A DNA stretch of 61,586 bases, the filler included. It is 11 parts of 11 records of this genome, joined end to end, with 100 filler letters (N's around TTAATTAATTAA, not from the genome) between each part and the next. Parts side by side here need not be neighbours in the genome. Positions count along the whole stretch, not along the records: positions 33,435 to 40,109 come from SRR15195285_4312; 10 more parts are not named here. One strand, written 5' to 3'. Each line of letters begins with the position of its first letter. Position 1 is the first letter of the stretch. Positions 9,205-56,653 of the stretch are shown here, piece by piece. The position numbers were made by a program, and so were the translations under genes. The notes beneath the pieces were generated by a model that did no database searches, was not told the DNA's origin, and saw only the letters and a program-made list of their open reading frames with translations.

Positions 9205-9304
9205 NNNNNNNNNNNNNNNNNNNNNNNNNNNNNNNNNNNNNNNNNNNNTTAATTAATTAANNNNNNNNNNNNNNNNNNNNNNNNNNNNNNNNNNNNNNNN
9301 NNNN
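9205..9304. other. Artificial contig spacer (N44-TTAATTAATTAA-N44)
   Basis: The same 100-nt linker, with stops in all six frames, recurs at 16850-16949, 21164-21263, 29737-29836, 33335-33434, 40110-40209, 43266-43365, 48642-48741, 52061-52160 and 56554-56653. Confidence 0.99.
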
Positions 9305-16849: not shown

Positions 16850-17077
16850 NNNNNNNNNNNNNNNNNNNNNNNNNNNNNNNNNNNNNNNNNNNNTTAATTA
16901 ATTAANNNNNNNNNNNNNNNNNNNNNNNNNNNNNNNNNNNNNNNNNNNNGCGGAGTCTGCTGCATTCATCAGTGAGTTCTATGTACTCCACAAGAGCTCC
17001 AGCGGGGGTGGTCTTTTGGCGCTCCCCACGGAAGTGGCCCCCCCCATACAATTGACTGGGCCGAAAAGGCGGACTTT

Positions 17078-20767: not shown

Positions 20768-21808
20768 GGCCCGCCGTGCACACCGCCTAGCCCGACGGAC
20801 AGCCCGGTCAGCGGTCTTCCCTGCCGGTGACGGAGGCACTAACCCGCCAGGCGAACCACAGTCTCCGCCAGCGACCGTGTTCCCACCCGACGCCCATGCG
20901 CATTGCGTAATGCGTATGTTTGAGTAGGAAGGCAAGGGAATTCAATACTTGCAGCTCGATATGGCGGCGGGAACTTCATGGCAGGATTGCGCGCAGATAT
21001 TCACCAGTGAAAATGAGACACCCTCAAACATGCGCCATGCACCCCCGGTGCGTCAGTAGCAAACAAGCAAAGATTCACGCGCGGCATGCAGTCACAGGCT
21101 GGGTTGGACTCTTGTGGAGTCAATCGAACTCACGGGTTCAGCACCGGCACTCCCTGATGGACANNNNNNNNNNNNNNNNNNNNNNNNNNNNNNNNNNNNN
21201 NNNNNNNTTAATTAATTAANNNNNNNNNNNNNNNNNNNNNNNNNNNNNNNNNNNNNNNNNNNNGCCGGCCGGCGCGGTGAACGCGCGCGCGACGACGCGA
21301 CGCGACGACGACCGCGTGCGCGCGCGCGTCGCCCGCGGGCGGGCGGCGGGCTCGCTGCATGCATTTTTTACGGTACGTACGCGCGCCGCGGTAGCCAGGT
21401 ACGAGTCAAAGTCATGATCTCATCGATGCGGTGCCTGCTTGCATCAACTGAATACACCTAAAGCGTCGGAGTGCATTAGAAACACTAAAGCAAGAGTAAC
21501 ACACCAAGAAAGCGCACGGCCACGCGGGGATCCCAGCTGGGTCGGCCAACATCCTTGACGAGGCTAGTCAAGGTAGTATCAGTAGACCCGCTCCCTAAGC
21601 CATCGAGACGGTACCACGAGCTAACCTGAGTGGTAGCCATCGCACTCGCATAGCGGCTCGTGGCGCGCGCACGTAGCCTCGTACGCAAACGCAAACTACC
21701 ACAGGCCTGATTTTCGCTCTAACAAATTTTTCGCTGATGCGATCGAATTGTCGCCCTTCGCTGATGTGCCGTGTGTGTTGTTGTGGATGCGCGCCTGGCC
21801 GCAGGCCA

Positions 21809-29736: not shown

Positions 29737-29958
29737 NNNNNNNNNNNNNNNNNNNNNNNNNNNNNNNNNNNNNNNNNNNNTTAATTAATTAANNNNNNNN
29801 NNNNNNNNNNNNNNNNNNNNNNNNNNNNNNNNNNNNTCTGGCGCCTCACCTCGGGCGTAGCACTCAATTTTGCATCATGCTCCATGCAGCATCGCGCGCG
29901 TGCGTGCCCATGCTGGGCACAGCCTGAGGGCTGAGGTTGGGATCGTGGCGGCTGTGGT

Positions 29959-33334: not shown

Positions 33335-33604
33335 NNNNNNNNNNNNNNNNNNNNNNNNNNNNNNNNNNNNNNNNNNNNTTAATTAATTAANNNNNNNNNN
33401 NNNNNNNNNNNNNNNNNNNNNNNNNNNNNNNNNNTCCCGAACGTACTCTGAGATCTAGTACCGTACCGCCGGGGTACTAGATCTAGTAGCTATTTTGGGA
33501 CGAACTGCGCCAAAAATGTCATCGGAACCCAAATTCTGCAGTGGTGGAAATCGGCATGATGATGATGATGGCGGGGCTCTAGACATGATGATGGCGCTCC
33601 GGCT

Positions 33605-33755
33605 GCTGGGCCCGACCCTCTTCCGCTTCCGGTTCCTCTGTTGAGGCACGCCGTTAGGCTTGAGGCGGCCATCAGGCTGGGCCCGACCCTCTTCCGGTTC
33701 CTGTCTCTGTGTTCAGGCACGCCGTTAGCTCTAGGCTTGGGGGCAATCAGGCTGG
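33605..33755. repeat. Imperfect tandem duplication (2 copies of about 70-80 bp) upstream of a gene
   Basis: GCTGGGCCCGACCCTCTTCC...GGTTCCT...AGGCACGCCGTTAG...ATCAGGCTGG occurs twice. Confidence 0.75.
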
Positions 33756-33827
33756 CTGGTCTGGCTCGCTTTGCGAGGTCTTGCCCGCTGCCCAACCCGC
33801 GGCTGAGTGTTCGGGTGGGGAGGGAGG

Positions 33828-36800
33828 ATGAGCGCCATGGTGGTGAACGGTGGGGGGCTGGGTGCGAGCCGCGCAGAGATTGCGGAGCTGCGGGAGGTCT
33901 TCGCGAAGTTTCACCCGGTGCTGCATACGACGAAGGATAGGCAGGGGAACGAGGACACGGAGCTGGTCATCACCGCGAACGAGCTAGGGATGGTGATGCG
34001 GAAGCTCGGGCAGGATGTACTCCCGAACGAGCTGGCGGATATGATCGAGGACAACGACGGCAAGCTCACGGGCCACGGAACGCCCGACGGGGTGCTGGAC
34101 TTCCCGGAGTTCATCCATATGATGTCAAGAAAGCTGCACGACCAGGCACATAAGCAGGAGGTGCAGGAGGCATTCCAGGTGTTTGACACCGACAGGAGCG
34201 GGTATATCTCGGCGAAGGAGCTGTGCAACGTGATGAACAATTTGGGGATCGATCTACCCAACGAAGACGGCACGCCCATGAGCGAAGCCGAAGTCGCGGA
34301 CCTCATCTGCGACTGGGGCCCCGTGGGCAAGGATGGCCGGCGAGCGCGTAGGCCCGGCATGAGCTGGGAGCGATTCTGGTCAGAGATTCAAGGTGCGGAT
34401 GGAATAGGCAAGAAGAAAAAGAAGGGGCGCGCTAAACTGGCCCAGGAGACGGAAAGGCTCGTAAAGAAGGCGCAGATGGAGCTCAAGCAGGCCAGGGAGG
34501 CAGCGCAGGCGGTCGACGGCCGGTACGAAGCCGAGACCGAAGAAGCGTTCGAGAAGCGCCAACGGGAGGCGCAGGATGTCGTCACGGCGGCGGAGAAGAA
34601 GCTCGAAGACCTGAAGAGCCAGTCCACGGAGAACGTAGACGAGGTCACGGTTACCCGGCTGGACATCAAGCGGTTCGCTGCCCAAGACAACGAGAGCACG
34701 CATGAGGCCGTGAAAATGAACCTACCGCAGCAGATCGAGAGGACTGTGCGGACTCGCACTTTCTTAGGCACGCGCTTCCTTACGACAGACGCGGCACAGA
34801 TGGCGAGGCGCTTTTCGGTCCGCTTAGCCGGCATGGACAAAAGTGGCGCCATCGATCTTGGAGAGATCAAGGGTGCACTGCAGGAGTTTGATCGGTACGG
34901 CGACCAGTCGGTGTTTGTGCAAGAGCTGGGGATGGTATGTGAGGTACTAGCCCGGCGCCCGATGAAAAACACTCTCAACGCGCTGGTAGAGACGCTCCGG
35001 GACACGAAACATTATCCAAATGCTCCGTGGTGCTGCGTTGGGTCCCCTCCATGGCAGGCGTGGACGTGCGAACGTTGTATGTCCGTGGGGAACATCGACG
35101 AGCGATGCCGTATCCAGACGTGTCTGGCCGAGCGACCAAGCGGTGCTGCGGGTTGCCGCTGCCCACGACCTGTCAAGTCGGCGGGTATGGCTGTCGATCG
35201 CCTTGCGCCGTTCGTTAGCTGCGAGCATGATGCCGACAATTTCACTATCTCGGTCGGCCGCGACGGGATTGCTGCGAACAAAAGTGCAAAGCAAGAGAAG
35301 CATACTAGTAAATGTGTGCATGGGTCCGAGAGTTGGTCAGCGTTTTGCGCTCGACGAGCTAGCATCCACGGCTACGGCAGCATCTCAGACCCGCGGCGCC
35401 AGCGTTTGTCGTGGACGAGAGGGCACGTGCCCGGTGGTAGCTGTGCCTTTTGCTGCGTGAGCATCAAGGCCGGAGCGGTAACTCATGGTTGGGCGAAGAC
35501 GGCTGATGGCAACCGATGGATCGAGGTCGAAGTAGACGAGAGGACGAATGAAAAACACGATCCTCTGGAGGGTCTGTGGGCACATATCTTCCCAGGCGGC
35601 GCGGAGTGGCGTGCTGGAAGAGGCTTCCCGAAAATTATTGATGCCCCGTGCGAGGATTGTGAAGACAATCACGCTCGATTTTGCCTGGGGGCCCACGCGA
35701 AGCAACAGGAGAAACTTGAGCTCAAACACGCCTACGAAACCCTGCAAGATGAGGAGATGCGAAACCACGGCGATACAGACACCGCAGAGGAGCGCATCCA
35801 CAACGCTCGGACGACAAAAGTTTTGGCCGAAAAGCGAGTCAGCGCAACGGAGGCCGCAGAGCGTGATAGCCGAATGCGCTGGTGCGAGACCTGTGCGAAC
35901 ACGCAGCGCGTTAGATTCAACGAGGGGGCGAAGGACCAACGCTCTGTACAGAGTTTGGAAGATGTCGAGTCAAAAATCGAGAGAGACATGGCGAGCTTTA
36001 TGCGGCGCCGGAAACCACAGGAACTGCTGGCAGAGATTCGGCGGGTAGCAATGACCTTCCAAGCCAAGGCATACTACGGTGAGATACGGGACAAGTTGTT
36101 GCGGCGGCGAGTGCTTGAAGAAAACAAATCTGGCTTCACACCGATGCATTGCGCAGCACGTGATGGAAGGTTAGGATGCGTCCATGCACTGCTGGTCCAC
36201 GACTCCACGGCCTTGGAAGAGGACATGGTGCCAGTCGGGAAGAGCGTTGCCTACACGTGGGACCCTTACGGTGGCACTGCTTACAAACTAGACCCGCCGC
36301 AGGACGCCGATCGGAGGCCAGGTTTGCGGCATCCAGATTACGATGTTTGGCCTACGAGCACAAGCCTGCAGGCGAAGATGGTGTGGTGTGGCACTCAAGA
36401 GGGGCAAGGTCCGATACAGGGGCGTGGCATCACTGAACAAGAGATTCAAGAGATCAGGGACTCTACTGGAGCAGTGATTACAGTGCCGAGTGGCTTAAAC
36501 ACGGACAACGAAGCATGGAAACGAGCTGAAGAGGGGCCGGACGCAGGGTCTGGAACTGAGGCTGCGCCTGTCGTGATCGTGATTGAAGGAAGCTGCAACG
36601 CACAGCTGGACGGGTGCGAGTCACCGATTTTGGTGGCGAAGCGCAAGCTCAAAGCGTTGCGACTCCGGTACTTCCTCGGCCACTTGCGAGAGCTCTACGC
36701 CACAGGGGTGGCGACCGAAAAATCCCGTGCAAAAGCGCTCAATGTTGCGAAGGAGAACAAGCAGAAGATAACAGACGAATTGATGCACCTGGAGCGCACC

Positions 36801-37730
36801 ATGCAGACCAAGCAGACGCAAAAGCAAGAAGAACACCAGCAGCAGCTCAAGGCTGAGGAGAAGAAGAAGGATGCAGATCTAGTTGAGAAGCGGCTTGCGT
36901 GGAATACGTGCGTCGACAACCAAAGGATCCAAGCACATAGAATTGCCGAGGTCGAAGTGGATTATCAGATGATGCAGCCATCCGAATTTGACACAGTTAA
37001 ACGCACACAAAAGCTCCTTGCGACCGCTGACCTCATGGGCTTCACACCGCTACACTGGGCGTGCCGCAATGGCCACACCGCCGTTGCTTTAGCGCTGATC
37101 GCGGAGGGCGCCCACCCAACCGCACTAAGCAAGAAGGGCCGCACACCGCTGGAGGAGGCAGAGGCCTTTCTCAAATTCGATGCGGGCGAAGAAGGAGAGG
37201 AGCTTTCGAAGATCAATCAAAGCTCTCTCGGTGCAGAGTTAGTCGCACTCCGAGCAGCAGAGGAACGACGACGCAACTGCGTGGCTGAACTCAGAGCACA
37301 GTGTCCTCTGATGGGTGACGAGCCGCTCAATCGTGGCACTCAGATCATTGTAGCTGGGTATGGCCATGGCGAATACGTCAGGCGCAAGCAGAAGGCTAGT
37401 AGCGGATTATGTGGGCGCGGCACGCGGTGCGCAGTACATATAGTGCGGTTCACAGCAGGTGGTGAGGAACAGCACTTGCCGTTGAAGGAGATGAGCTGGC
37501 AACTGCATAAATTTAAAGCTGAACGACTCGCACGCTCCACCAAGGCTTTCACGAGTACCACGACGGGTAACTCAAGCGGAGATTCCTCGTTCGATGGATT
37601 AGAGCAATCTGCCGCCAAGCCGACGGCTGAGCCGGAGCCAGCACTACCGGGTGGTGTACCTTCCACACCGTCAAAATACGTCCAAGCTCACTCGGTCAGT
37701 GCAAGGACAGGAAAGAAACTCGAGCTGTAG
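33828..37730 (+). CDS. Mosaic protein: calmodulin-like EF-hands, coiled coils, Zn-finger-like Cys motifs, ankyrin repeats, KH-like domain
   Basis: Intronless ORF of about 1300 aa. Contains ELGMVMRKLGQ, LDFPEFIHMMSRK and EAFQVFDTDRSGYISAKEL (calmodulin-like), plus GFTPMHCAARDG and GFTPLHWACRNGH (ankyrin). Confidence 0.85.
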   Translation: MSAMVVNGGGLGASRAEIAELREVFAKFHPVLHTTKDRQGNEDTELVITANELGMVMRKLGQDVLPNELADMIEDNDGKLTGHGTPDGVLDFPEFIHMMSRKLHDQAHKQEVQEAFQVFDTDRSGYISAKELCNVMNNLGIDLPNEDGTPMSEAEVADLICDWGPVGKDGRRARRPGMSWERFWSEIQGADGIGKKKKKGRAKLAQETERLVKKAQMELKQAREAAQAVDGRYEAETEEAFEKRQREAQDVVTAAEKKLEDLKSQSTENVDEVTVTRLDIKRFAAQDNESTHEAVKMNLPQQIERTVRTRTFLGTRFLTTDAAQMARRFSVRLAGMDKSGAIDLGEIKGALQEFDRYGDQSVFVQELGMVCEVLARRPMKNTLNALVETLRDTKHYPNAPWCCVGSPPWQAWTCERCMSVGNIDERCRIQTCLAERPSGAAGCRCPRPVKSAGMAVDRLAPFVSCEHDADNFTISVGRDGIAANKSAKQEKHTSKCVHGSESWSAFCARRASIHGYGSISDPRRQRLSWTRGHVPGGSCAFCCVSIKAGAVTHGWAKTADGNRWIEVEVDERTNEKHDPLEGLWAHIFPGGAEWRAGRGFPKIIDAPCEDCEDNHARFCLGAHAKQQEKLELKHAYETLQDEEMRNHGDTDTAEERIHNARTTKVLAEKRVSATEAAERDSRMRWCETCANTQRVRFNEGAKDQRSVQSLEDVESKIERDMASFMRRRKPQELLAEIRRVAMTFQAKAYYGEIRDKLLRRRVLEENKSGFTPMHCAARDGRLGCVHALLVHDSTALEEDMVPVGKSVAYTWDPYGGTAYKLDPPQDADRRPGLRHPDYDVWPTSTSLQAKMVWCGTQEGQGPIQGRGITEQEIQEIRDSTGAVITVPSGLNTDNEAWKRAEEGPDAGSGTEAAPVVIVIEGSCNAQLDGCESPILVAKRKLKALRLRYFLGHLRELYATGVATEKSRAKALNVAKENKQKITDELMHLERTMQTKQTQKQEEHQQQLKAEEKKKDADLVEKRLAWNTCVDNQRIQAHRIAEVEVDYQMMQPSEFDTVKRTQKLLATADLMGFTPLHWACRNGHTAVALALIAEGAHPTALSKKGRTPLEEAEAFLKFDAGEEGEELSKINQSSLGAELVALRAAEERRRNCVAELRAQCPLMGDEPLNRGTQIIVAGYGHGEYVRRKQKASSGLCGRGTRCAVHIVRFTAGGEEQHLPLKEMSWQLHKFKAERLARSTKAFTSTTTGNSSGDSSFDGLEQSAAKPTAEPEPALPGGVPSTPSKYVQAHSVSARTGKKLEL

Positions 37731-37867
37731 TGTGCTATCAGCCGAAGGTGCTGACAGGTGTTTGATCTGAAAGAAATTTGCTGGTTGAACACACGTTGTG
37801 GCGTGCCACCAATGAAAGCGCTATCCGCCATCAGTTCCGTGGCACTAATGGCCTGACTAAGATCATC

Positions 37868-40109
37868 CTAGTTCCGTTCCACCGACGCAGCTTCAGCACG
37901 CAGCTCCTCGAGAAAACCTGCAAAGTATGTATCGCACTTGATCCGTCCCCACCGGCTACGCGCGTTGAACAACTTTCTTGGTTTACCCTCTTCACCTTCC
38001 TTTATCCTTCCCCGCGTTCGGATGCGCGGCTCTTCCTCTGGCATGGCCGCCACCTCCTCTTGCGCCTTCGCCACCAACAAGGCAGCCTCTTGCATGGGGT
38101 CGCTTCCTAACGCTGGACGTCCACAGACGTACGCCGACACTTGAGCCCATTAGTGCTCAGCTGTAGCACGTGCAGCTTCTAGTGCAAAGGTAAAGCGAGC
38201 AAAGCAAGTTTAAGTGCATCACGCTCACCAGGTTTGAAATCATACATGATGTACTCCTTCCCTGCACGGCCTTGTGGAACCCGCTGTCCCTTGTCCGCCT
38301 CACCGGTGAAGTTCACACCTCCGTCACCAGACACCCAATGCTCCGCAGGCCACCCGTCCCAATTCAGCGTGATTTTATCATGTCCACGAGCTGTGCGACA
38401 CCCAATGCCACATCAAGATTCACGGCGCGTAGGGCCAAACAATTCCACGGTGGTGGCAGCGACTGTTGTGGGGTGGGTGCCAGAACTCACCACCACCAGA
38501 GCCTGCCCACATCCCCGAGTATTGAATCGTCTGGCGTGCTCGACCCTTAGCATGCTTTGGCCTTGGATCCTCCTTCCAAAATTTTCCGTCTGGCCAGAAG
38601 TGGACCTTCCACGGATTGTCGCGTGATGAATCTCGCCACTGTGGATGGACTACCGACGCCACCACACGCGGCGGGGCGTCCGGTAGGCCTAGCCAAAATG
38701 CTTCGACCCTGTGCACACAGCAGCCAAATTGCTAATTAGAAAAGCCCGACAAGGAACTGTGACAACTGAAACTTCACAGCTACACTCACTCCTCGGGTGC
38801 TTCCGGCGCATTCGGATCTTCTTCACCGTCCCAGATGGGACCAGTGAAACCAAGAACTTCGCCTGCCTGTTGTTCACCTTCGGTCAACTCGTCCTATAGC
38901 TTTTCCGTGCAGAGTGGCATCGCCTCATGGTCCCAACGCTGTTGCGTGTTCCAACCGAGCGTTGTGGCCGCACTCTGCTCTTCTTCGGTCAAGTCAACCC
39001 ATGCTTTGTGATTCAAGCCCATGACAAGGATTGGCCTGGGTTTATTCTTCTCCGCTTCGTCTGCTGCCTTTTTTGCGTCTTCCTCTGCAATTTCAGCAAG
39101 CATTTCTTCCTCCGGCTGCGCAAGGTTTTTGAGGTACGCTTCTAGTACGTAGGGATCGCACAGCCCAAGCAGCCACTGCCAGTCATCGGGGCCCATCATC
39201 TGAACATCACAGCCTGGCTCAGTCATTAGTAGCATTAGGCCCTCTCGTGCTTTTTCAGCGCGGTCGCCGTAGTGGCTCTTCTCGTCTGAGGTCTTGTGGT
39301 ACCCATCGTCTTGCCAGTGTGCCCGGTAGATCTTGGGGAGATAGATGGTCAAAGTGATGCCAGCCGGCCGCAGCGTCGTGCGCAACCATTCGAGCAGGCG
39401 CATCGTGCACGATGTCGTGACAGCTTTCCCTATATTCTTGACGTGACCTCCTGAGAAGTGACACGGCTGATACGTCAAGTACACACTCACTCGACCACCT
39501 GCGCCCTCGGCTGGTTCCAAAAGTGCTGGCGAGGTTTTGATAGCAGCTTCGAGGTCGGCATCTTCGAGCATGAACTGCTCTGCGTGGTAGTTGTCCTTCT
39601 CCGAGCCACGGTAGCAATTCATGTAGCGTCCAACGTACGCAGTGCGCCAATCCGAGGTGTTCGAGTCGCGCAGCTCCAGCCGTCCAACTGCGACCACAGC
39701 ATGGCTCACAACACACTCCACCGGATCGATGCAGATCCCGTCATGCACGTCGGCTTCCCACACAGGGAACATGTGGTAGAAGACTGCACAGACTTGGCCG
39801 TGACTGCCTAGCAGTGATCGCCCCTCAGATTTAGCCTTGTGGAGCGACAGTGTGTGCTCGACCTCTTTGATCCACTGTTCCCCTCCTCGGGCAACCTCTG
39901 CCTCGTCCTCGGGCCGCGCATGTACATATACAGGCATGTGCTCTCCTCCGGGCTCGGTGTCACAGCCGCAACCGGGGCCATGGCCGCTGCCCGAAGCCCA
40001 CCCGGCCCCGGGACGCTGTCCGCGTCCGCCGCCGGAACCACCGCCACCGCCGCCACCTTCGGGGCACTCTCGAGAGATATGGCCGACCTCGCCGCAATTG
40101 AAGCAGGCC
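37868..40109 (-). CDS. AID/APOBEC-like zinc-dependent deaminase with an N-terminal CCHC zinc knuckle and Trp repeats; 5'-truncated; in-frame TAG at 38894-38896
   Basis: The frame is open from the contig end: CFNCGEVGHISREC (40064-40105), Gly linker, HAE (39578-39586), YLTYQPC-x17-C (39407-39466), then LTIYLPKIYRAHW and REGLMLL. Downstream exons join in frame across GT-AG introns (e.g. 38391-38490). Confidence 0.8.
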
Positions 40110-40381
40110 NNNNNNNNNNNNNNNNNNNNNNNNNNNNNNNNNNNNNNNNNNNNTTAATTAATTAANNNNNNNNNNNNNNNNNNNNNNNNNNNNNNNNNNN
40201 NNNNNNNNNCCCTCTGATCACCTCGAATCGCTGCTTTTTTCTCGCGGATTACTTCGTAAATTAGCCTTGTTTTGACTCCGACTGAGGACTGAATTCCGAC
40301 CCAGCCTGTGAGCACATCGTCGTGTGTACTGGGAGGCGCTTTCTTCTTCGCTGTGGAGGGCGATCTGTCGCTGCGAAGGGG

Positions 40382-43260: not shown

Positions 43261-43551
43261 GTCGANNNNNNNNNNNNNNNNNNNNNNNNNNNNNNNNNNN
43301 NNNNNNNNNTTAATTAATTAANNNNNNNNNNNNNNNNNNNNNNNNNNNNNNNNNNNNNNNNNNNNTATAATATCAAGTTGTACACGGCACTTCATGTAGC
43401 GATCACTGACTACAGGGTGCGGGGTCGCGCTCCAGGTGCCGTGCGTGACGGAGCGCACGACGTAACGCTGCGATCGGAATGCAGAATCCGTGGGGTCCTT
43501 GAGCTTGACACGCTTCGCTCGCGCTGCGTCCCGGCGTGCGAACCGCGCAGC

Positions 43552-48641: not shown

Positions 48642-49053
48642 NNNNNNNNNNNNNNNNNNNNNNNNNNNNNNNNNNNNNNNNNNNNTTAATTAATTAANNN
48701 NNNNNNNNNNNNNNNNNNNNNNNNNNNNNNNNNNNNNNNNNCTCCTCAGACCATGACACAGCCCATCATTCGAGTAATGCATCTGATTCTGATTCTCGGA
48801 TGTCTAAAAATGCATGCGCCGCCGCTCTGCCGATCCAGATGCGCCCTTCGCCGCCACACGCGCGACGCGGTGCGCAATTACCGTCGGCGCCTCGGAGCAG
48901 CCAGCTGCGCAGCGAGCACGTTCAGCTGCTGCGTGCTGAGCTGGGCGCCACGTGGCAGTCTCTGGGGGATGGTGAGCGACGAATGAGCGGCGCTTGAGCT
49001 GATACTGGCGGCAGGCGGCGAGCTGAGCTGAGCTGGGGAGGGGTGGAGGAGGG

Positions 49054-51655: not shown

Positions 51656-52160
51656 CCCTGTAGCAACAGCCAGCTGCCCCCTGACCCCGGCACGCTCGTA
51701 CCGCGGCGCGAGGTTGCAACGACTGCAGCGTGACTTGCTGAAGACCACGTGTCTCCAGATTTTGTTGGTTTCGGAGCCTCCGGACCAACAAAATCTGGCG
51801 TACAGCTGTACCCAAGTACCCCTCTGGCCGCGTGAAGACCGCGCGATCGCCAACTCCTACCGTGTACTACTGGTACTGTCCCTGCCCATACGTCTTGTTA
51901 ACGTGCACGCCAGGGGCGCGGCAACACCAAAAGTTGCCAATCCTCGAACGATCGGGCCCCTGGGGGCCTCCCTGGGGCCGCGCGCGGTCCGGACGAGCTC
52001 AGCTGAGACTACTACGCTAGTACGATACAGTACTTCCGCCCGAGTCGCAGATTTAGGGCGNNNNNNNNNNNNNNNNNNNNNNNNNNNNNNNNNNNNNNNN
52101 NNNNTTAATTAATTAANNNNNNNNNNNNNNNNNNNNNNNNNNNNNNNNNNNNNNNNNNNN

Positions 52161-56330: not shown

Positions 56331-56653
56331 TTCGCTGCGCTTACGCTTTGAGGACGCCGTGGCTGTCGATAGTAGCCCGTAGTGCTAGCGTCGTACGCGT
56401 ATACGCGTATCGCGAGCGCGCGCGTGCTGGGCGCGCCGCGCGCGCGCGCGCGACCGACGCCACGCACCGGCGCATGGGCCGCCACCACAATGTGATTCCG
56501 TGATCGGCGGACACTTTTGCGGGCACACCGGATCTTTACTATAGAAATAATGANNNNNNNNNNNNNNNNNNNNNNNNNNNNNNNNNNNNNNNNNNNNTTA
56601 ATTAATTAANNNNNNNNNNNNNNNNNNNNNNNNNNNNNNNNNNNNNNNNNNNN

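Follow-up and report, generated by a model that had tools for sequence, protein, structure and literature searches.

The in-frame TAG at 38896..38894 (minus strand), which interrupts a gene for an AID/APOBEC-like deaminase, is very probably a private single-base difference of one assembly, with nothing programmed involved, the gene being intact in all other respects, conserved and expressed. The normal codon of the species at this position is most likely TGG (Trp), since the contigs of three public sequencing runs (X1, X2 and X3), a conspecific protein (P0024) and the relatives all read TGG or W, and RNA editing, readthrough, recoding or splicing would be neither required nor indicated. The TAG itself may stem from an error of amplification, damage, sequencing or assembly, or may represent a genuine rare nonsense allele in the sampled cell or cells, the two origins being about equally likely. 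The lesson of the case concerns the quality of data: when the fragmentary assembly of an uncultured protist shows a lone in-frame stop, comparison with other samples is needed before a biological reading is given to it.

The window, that is, the whole stretch of DNA analysed (61,586 nucleotides), consists of 11 assembly pieces of 3.1-9.2 kb each, set end to end in an order that need not reflect genome neighbourhood. Between them stand 100-nt spacers, ten in all and each the same (44 N, TTAATTAATTAA, 44 N). The deaminase gene occupies part of the piece at 33435-40109, the end of which cuts off the 5' end of the gene. The features of the window are as follows:

9205-9304, 16850-16949, 21164-21263, 29737-29836, 33335-33434, 40110-40209, 43266-43365, 48642-48741, 52061-52160 and 56554-56653: the ten spacers.
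38790..40108, minus strand: exon 1, 5'-truncated where the piece stops at 40109.
40058..40108, minus strand: CCHC zinc knuckle (ACFNCGEVGHISRECPE; Pfam PF00098 at 34.5 bits, cut-off 20.8).
39173..39613, minus strand: AID/APOBEC-like cytidine deaminase domain (Pfam APOBEC_N, PF08210, at 27.5 bits, cut-off 25).
38930..39007, minus strand: repeat 1, translated as KAWVDLTEEEQSAATTLGWNTQQRWD.
38828..38902, minus strand: repeat 2, translated as KL*DELTEGEQQAGEVLGFTGPIWD, all relatives having W in place of the asterisk.
38896..38894, minus strand: in-frame TAG at the conserved Trp position of repeat 2 (plus-strand T at 38895 in the window).
38709..38789, minus strand: intron 1 (81 nt, GTGAGT..CAG), where the relatives L001 and P0027 read EEVEAFWLGL unbroken, with the junction between EE and VEAF.
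38491..38708, minus strand: exon 2 (gene model and alignment of relatives).
38391..38490, minus strand: intron 2 (100 nt, GTGAGT..CAG), seen as a spliced joint 38390>38491 in an RNA contig of run X15, with ends CT..AC on the plus strand.
38229..38390, minus strand: exon 3 (gene model and X15 record 11).
38113..38228, minus strand: intron 3 (116 nt, GTGAGC..CAG), across the junction of which L001 aligns (third tblastn segment).
37868..38112, minus strand: exon 4, with the gene's own stop, a TAG, at 37870..37868.
37942, 38196, 38278, 38441, 38449, 39527 and 39701: private differences of the window besides 38895, from the comparison of runs.

Exon 1 encodes one CCHC knuckle, the deaminase domain, a charged linker and two Trp-Asp repeats, and the translation of 38788-39850 (minus strand) runs through the deaminase region and on into ...HKAWVDLTEEEQSAATTLGWNTQQRWDHEAMPLCTEKL*DELTEGEQQAGEVLGFTGPIWDGEEDPNAPEAPEE. 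Once joined, the exons form a frame of 1944 nt in which the TAG at 38896..38894 is the sole internal stop and no frameshift occurs downstream, and the three introns all conform to GTGAG[TC]...CAG. The description given in the earlier note, of a TAG standing at the conserved Trp of repeat 2 and of a frame that continues past it through GT-AG introns as far as 37868, is thus accurate, and the match between the repeats is no chance alignment, given that W occupies the site in all database proteins that contain its motif (see below). A Pfam search assigned neither the two repeats nor the downstream exons to a family. Intron positions vary among relatives: L001, compared over L001:329-2423 against 37868-40108 of the window, reads through introns 1 and 2 of the window and changes frame after '...EPG' and '...DGG', and the P0025/P0027 relative has an apparent intron within the deaminase domain.

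The state of the codon outside the window was assessed in public sequencing runs. A search of a public-run index returned 19 rows with all or part of the stretch, and four runs (X1, X2, X3 and X15) were compared with the window over 37700-40100, X1 and X3 belonging to one study (P1) and X2 to another (P2). The stretch is present in runs X4-X14 as well, and the comparison covered the four runs named. All three runs that cover position 38895 have C on the plus strand, i.e. TGG in the coding sense, each with one Logan contig at the site, contigs being sequences from which rare variants are lost, so that the samples concerned may contain a TAG allele at low frequency. Depth at the position was 5.58 in X3, 3.71 in X1 and 4.68 in X2; a single contig of depth below 5 may err, according to a warning of the tool, yet the three runs agree all the same. 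The X1 contig (record 3, 38096-39168, 0 gaps) and the X2 contigs (records 17 and 18) span all three introns and contain them, which makes them DNA-like and the G at the codon genomic. The library of X3 is filed as metatranscriptomic RNA but retains intron sequence at 38222-38455 and 38583-38777 (records 26 and 27), as DNA or unspliced RNA would, and for this reason its G is not citable as an mRNA reading. The fourth run, X15, has zero cover at 38895, its record 12 stopping at 38896. An interpretation of this end beside the site as a bubble between two alleles was rejected, the record being exactly 151 letters long, like others in these runs; record 12 alone explains the depth of 0.47 in the bin 38834-38914, hence no branch contigs are present.

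Agreement with these runs comes from a full-length protein, P0024 (754 residues, from a 14.9-kb genome contig), which was found in the 90%-identity cluster of match P0002 and is named Picozoa sp. COSAG02 (EP01043) by its source. It is identical to the translation of exon 1 of the window over the 404 residues that precede the TAG and the 35 that follow, and has W at the TAG codon. This identity indicates that the organism is a picozoan and, as judged from the protein sequence, P0024 adds an independent conspecific genome with Trp at the site. The database proteins as a set behave in the same way, W being found in 19/19 of those containing the site motif (among 42 fetched), while a protein ending at TE[KN]L was found in 0/42 of those fetched. 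A scan of metagenome contigs yielded one close relative, L001, at 67-72% identity, the DNA of which reads TGG at the codon; identity of the 8 remaining loci is 28-38%, and the site was compared in L001 only. The earlier note had held that TGG in independent genomes would reduce the TAG to a private allele or an artefact, and this is the situation encountered in the X1, X2 and X3 contigs, in P0024 and in the relatives. What does not hold is the assumption that the organism as such has the TAG, which occurred nowhere but in this window.

In addition to 38895, there are 7 places within 37700-40100 (2.4 kb) where all covering runs disagree with the window. Three of these fall in introns, three at third codon positions without effect on the amino acid, and the last is an Ile/Val exchange, so that 6/7 are silent, whereas random single-base changes in the gene are expected to be silent in 33% of cases and nonsense in 4% (P=0.006 for 6/7 under random change). 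This excess of silent changes suggests that the window carries an ordinary, selection-filtered haplotype of which the TAG is the sole disruptive change. The portion of the gene that follows the TAG shows no decay in the window. Between the window and L001, pN/pS (used in place of dN/dS because dS is saturated, with pS of 0.78-0.85) was 0.31 upstream of the TAG and 0.24 downstream. In this lineage the exons beyond the TAG are functional, being constrained and having intron 2 spliced in the X15 RNA contig. The lack of downstream decay, together with the constraint, implies that the change to TAG is either very recent or not real.

The material for the published picozoan genomes was single cells sorted by FACS and amplified by MDA, with co-assembly in some cases (PMC8599508), and single-cell whole-genome amplification gives false single-base calls rich in C>T, derived from single-stranded DNA damage and polymerase error (PMC7923680). 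The TAG is likewise a lone C>T in one assembly, and false positives of this type are a candidate cause for it. The 7 other differences of the window, in turn, resemble real polymorphisms, which argues that the assembly is not error-ridden in general. Amplification or sequencing damage, the last of the explanations advanced in the earlier note, thus survives, side by side with a private allele.

Among the alternatives to a private difference without programmed function, the earlier note had listed a genomic TAG rescued by readthrough of a programmed kind or by A-to-I editing, which turns UAG into UIG, with production of short and long isoforms. In filamentous fungi, A-to-I editing repairs premature UAG stops, and the window resembles those cases in having an in-frame TAG at a Trp position followed by an open frame; the downstream exons are, moreover, conserved and spliced. 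However, fungal UAG editing acts on genomic TAG codons that are fixed and conserved and produces RNA that differs from DNA, whereas the codon of this species is TGG and the genomic stop is not conserved, the DNA-like contigs of X1 and X2, P0024 and all relatives having TGG or W. With TGG in the DNA of the species, no rescue is needed. Furthermore, the DNA-like X1 and the RNA library X3, both from P1, agree on G, leaving no DNA/RNA difference, and the 7 other differences (A>C, G>T and similar) are ordinary polymorphism with no editing pattern. An edited or read-through stop is therefore very unlikely. A fixed TAG, if true, would have been a sign that stop codons are edited or recoded in a protist lineage about which little is known, and the first such case tied to an APOBEC-like gene.

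Equally hard to credit is the proposal that the deaminase mutated its own gene. In its fullest form, this reading makes the TAG a true private allele, produced when the encoded enzyme deaminated a plus-strand C preceded by C (5'-CC, C>T) in its own transcribed gene. The allele would be tolerated since the truncated product retains its zinc knuckles and catalytic domain, or else through rescue by editing or readthrough. The footprint of APOBEC3G-type hypermutation is indeed TGG>TAG, usually with many clustered changes, and the window shares with it the C>T on the opposite strand (G>A coding) in a CC context, tcc[C>T]ata, in a gene that encodes an AID/APOBEC-like fold. It differs from APOBEC3G hypermutation in offering one change against many clustered ones. 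C>T or G>A accounts for 4 of the 8 private differences, in mixed contexts and without clustering, and the changed C is preceded by C in only two (38895 and 39527); the three besides the TAG are scattered, and the clustered, strand-coordinated pattern was not observed. A single event is at issue and, moreover, C>T is the most frequent change both among spontaneous mutations and among those due to damage. Self-mutation may be the cause of a real private allele, should there be one, on the strength of one C>T in a CC context, but as an explanation of the TAG it is not supported. If true, it would amount to natural self-inflicted deaminase mutagenesis in a protist.

The earlier note had also raised the possibility that a 105-nt intron at 38998..38894 (GTTGAC...TAG) removes repeat 1 along with the stop. 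The stretch has the length and the ends attributed to it, with GT and AG present and a length that is a multiple of three, and its removal would create a perfect hybrid repeat; such a product is automatic, however, when two in-frame repeats are joined at an aligned Trp. The joint was found in 0/4 runs, although the same comparison catches the real 100-nt intron in X15. The stretch is contained uninterrupted in record 29 of X3, record 3 of X1 and record 18 of X2, while 38896-39046 is covered by record 12 of X15. Both repeats are kept in every relative spanning the region, and the donor GTTGAC is atypical when set against the real donors of the gene (GTGAGT, GTGAGT and GTGAGC). Splicing of this stretch is consequently extremely improbable. 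Reassignment of TAG as a sense codon in the organism, for which the single in-frame TAG is the sole argument, can be dismissed almost outright, since predicted stop-to-stop ORFs of at least 250 codons end in TAG in 9 cases (one of them this site), in TGA in 12 and in TAA in 3, predicted ORFs of 2664, 1929 and 1307 codons are free of TAG, and conspecific copies use TGG at the site.

Aside from the question of the TAG, the private difference lies in a gene of some value in itself. Its product is a predicted multi-CCHC-knuckle AID/APOBEC-like cytidine deaminase of a picozoan, an assignment based on sequence comparison and structural modelling. The full-length conspecific P0024 has five CCHC knuckles with Gly-rich linkers between them, N-terminal to the APOBEC-like domain, and C-terminal to this domain come the two Trp-Asp repeats and a conserved extension. 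On the minus strand of the window the zinc motif is made up of HAE at 39586..39578, PC at 39466..39461 and a second zinc Cys at 39409..39407. In an alignment of 14 sequences (the window and 13 relatives) the motif takes the form HAE...TYQPCH.SGG-(insert)-TSC, in which P, both C and TYQPCH.SGG do not vary, while conservation of H, A and E is 90% or higher. The two zinc cysteines are separated by 17 residues in the window, and by a longer insert, of variable length, in the relatives. Scores of the Pfam NAD1, SNAD4 and APOBEC4 models on the window protein were under their cut-offs, and a sequence-profile search of the PDB gave 0 matches. The AlphaFold2 model of the domain (pLDDT 75.4, pTM 0.78) retrieved with Foldseek PDB matches that, among those listed, are all APOBEC3A/B/C/F/G or AID (best E 3.5e-7, probability 1.00; target TM about 0.5-0.57), with APOBEC3A/F/G/B and AID as the nearest. 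By analogy with enzymes of this fold, the protein would carry out C-to-U deamination of single-stranded nucleic acid bound via its knuckles.

AID/APOBEC-like deaminases have been described in algal lineages, including a 'cnidaria-algae-APOBEC4' clade (Krishnan et al. 2018, PMC5889660, in the portion of the article available). The window gene has in common with the non-vertebrate deaminases treated there an APOBEC_N match, the HAE...PC...C motif and a predicted fold of APOBEC type. It departs from the deaminases presented in that portion in its picozoan host, its several N-terminal CCHC knuckles and its C-terminal Trp-Asp repeats with the conserved extension. Its likeness to the cnidaria-algae-APOBEC4 clade is one of motif, Pfam match and fold rather than of position in a tree, and the window has an insert of 17 residues between the zinc cysteines where the criterion for the clade, as given in the same portion, is an insert in loop 5 together with a metal-binding insert in loop 1. 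The terms 'zinc knuckle', 'CCHC' and 'Zn-knuckle' are absent from the main text of PMC5889660. A literature search recovered no paper joining Picozoa with APOBEC, and none joining APOBEC, zinc knuckle and protist, and the combination of CCHC knuckles with an APOBEC-like domain in Picozoa may be undescribed, though within a kind of protein already known; as such, the fusion has some value independently of the stop codon.

Several features were noted in the vicinity of the gene and in the material compared with it. On the same piece, an open frame of 1307 codons with EF-hand and ankyrin repeats (33807-37730, plus strand) is convergent with the deaminase gene, the stop codons of both being 137 nt apart. 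At the other end of the gene, the Gly-rich (GGN) linker region at 39968-40100 attracts, in all four runs, contigs of depth 100-1500 from many other organisms; these have loose ends on both sides, and depth in this region is uninformative on the deaminase gene. Finally, one of the loci recovered, L003:2950-3648 (plus strand), encodes a stand-alone AID/APOBEC-like deaminase of 232 residues (Pfam SNAD4, 39.4 bits) that is 31% identical to the domain of the window. It is located on a 104-kb metagenome contig of 33% GC with densely packed, intron-free ORFs that lack a Pfam match, and this contig may belong to a giant virus or to another large mobile genome.
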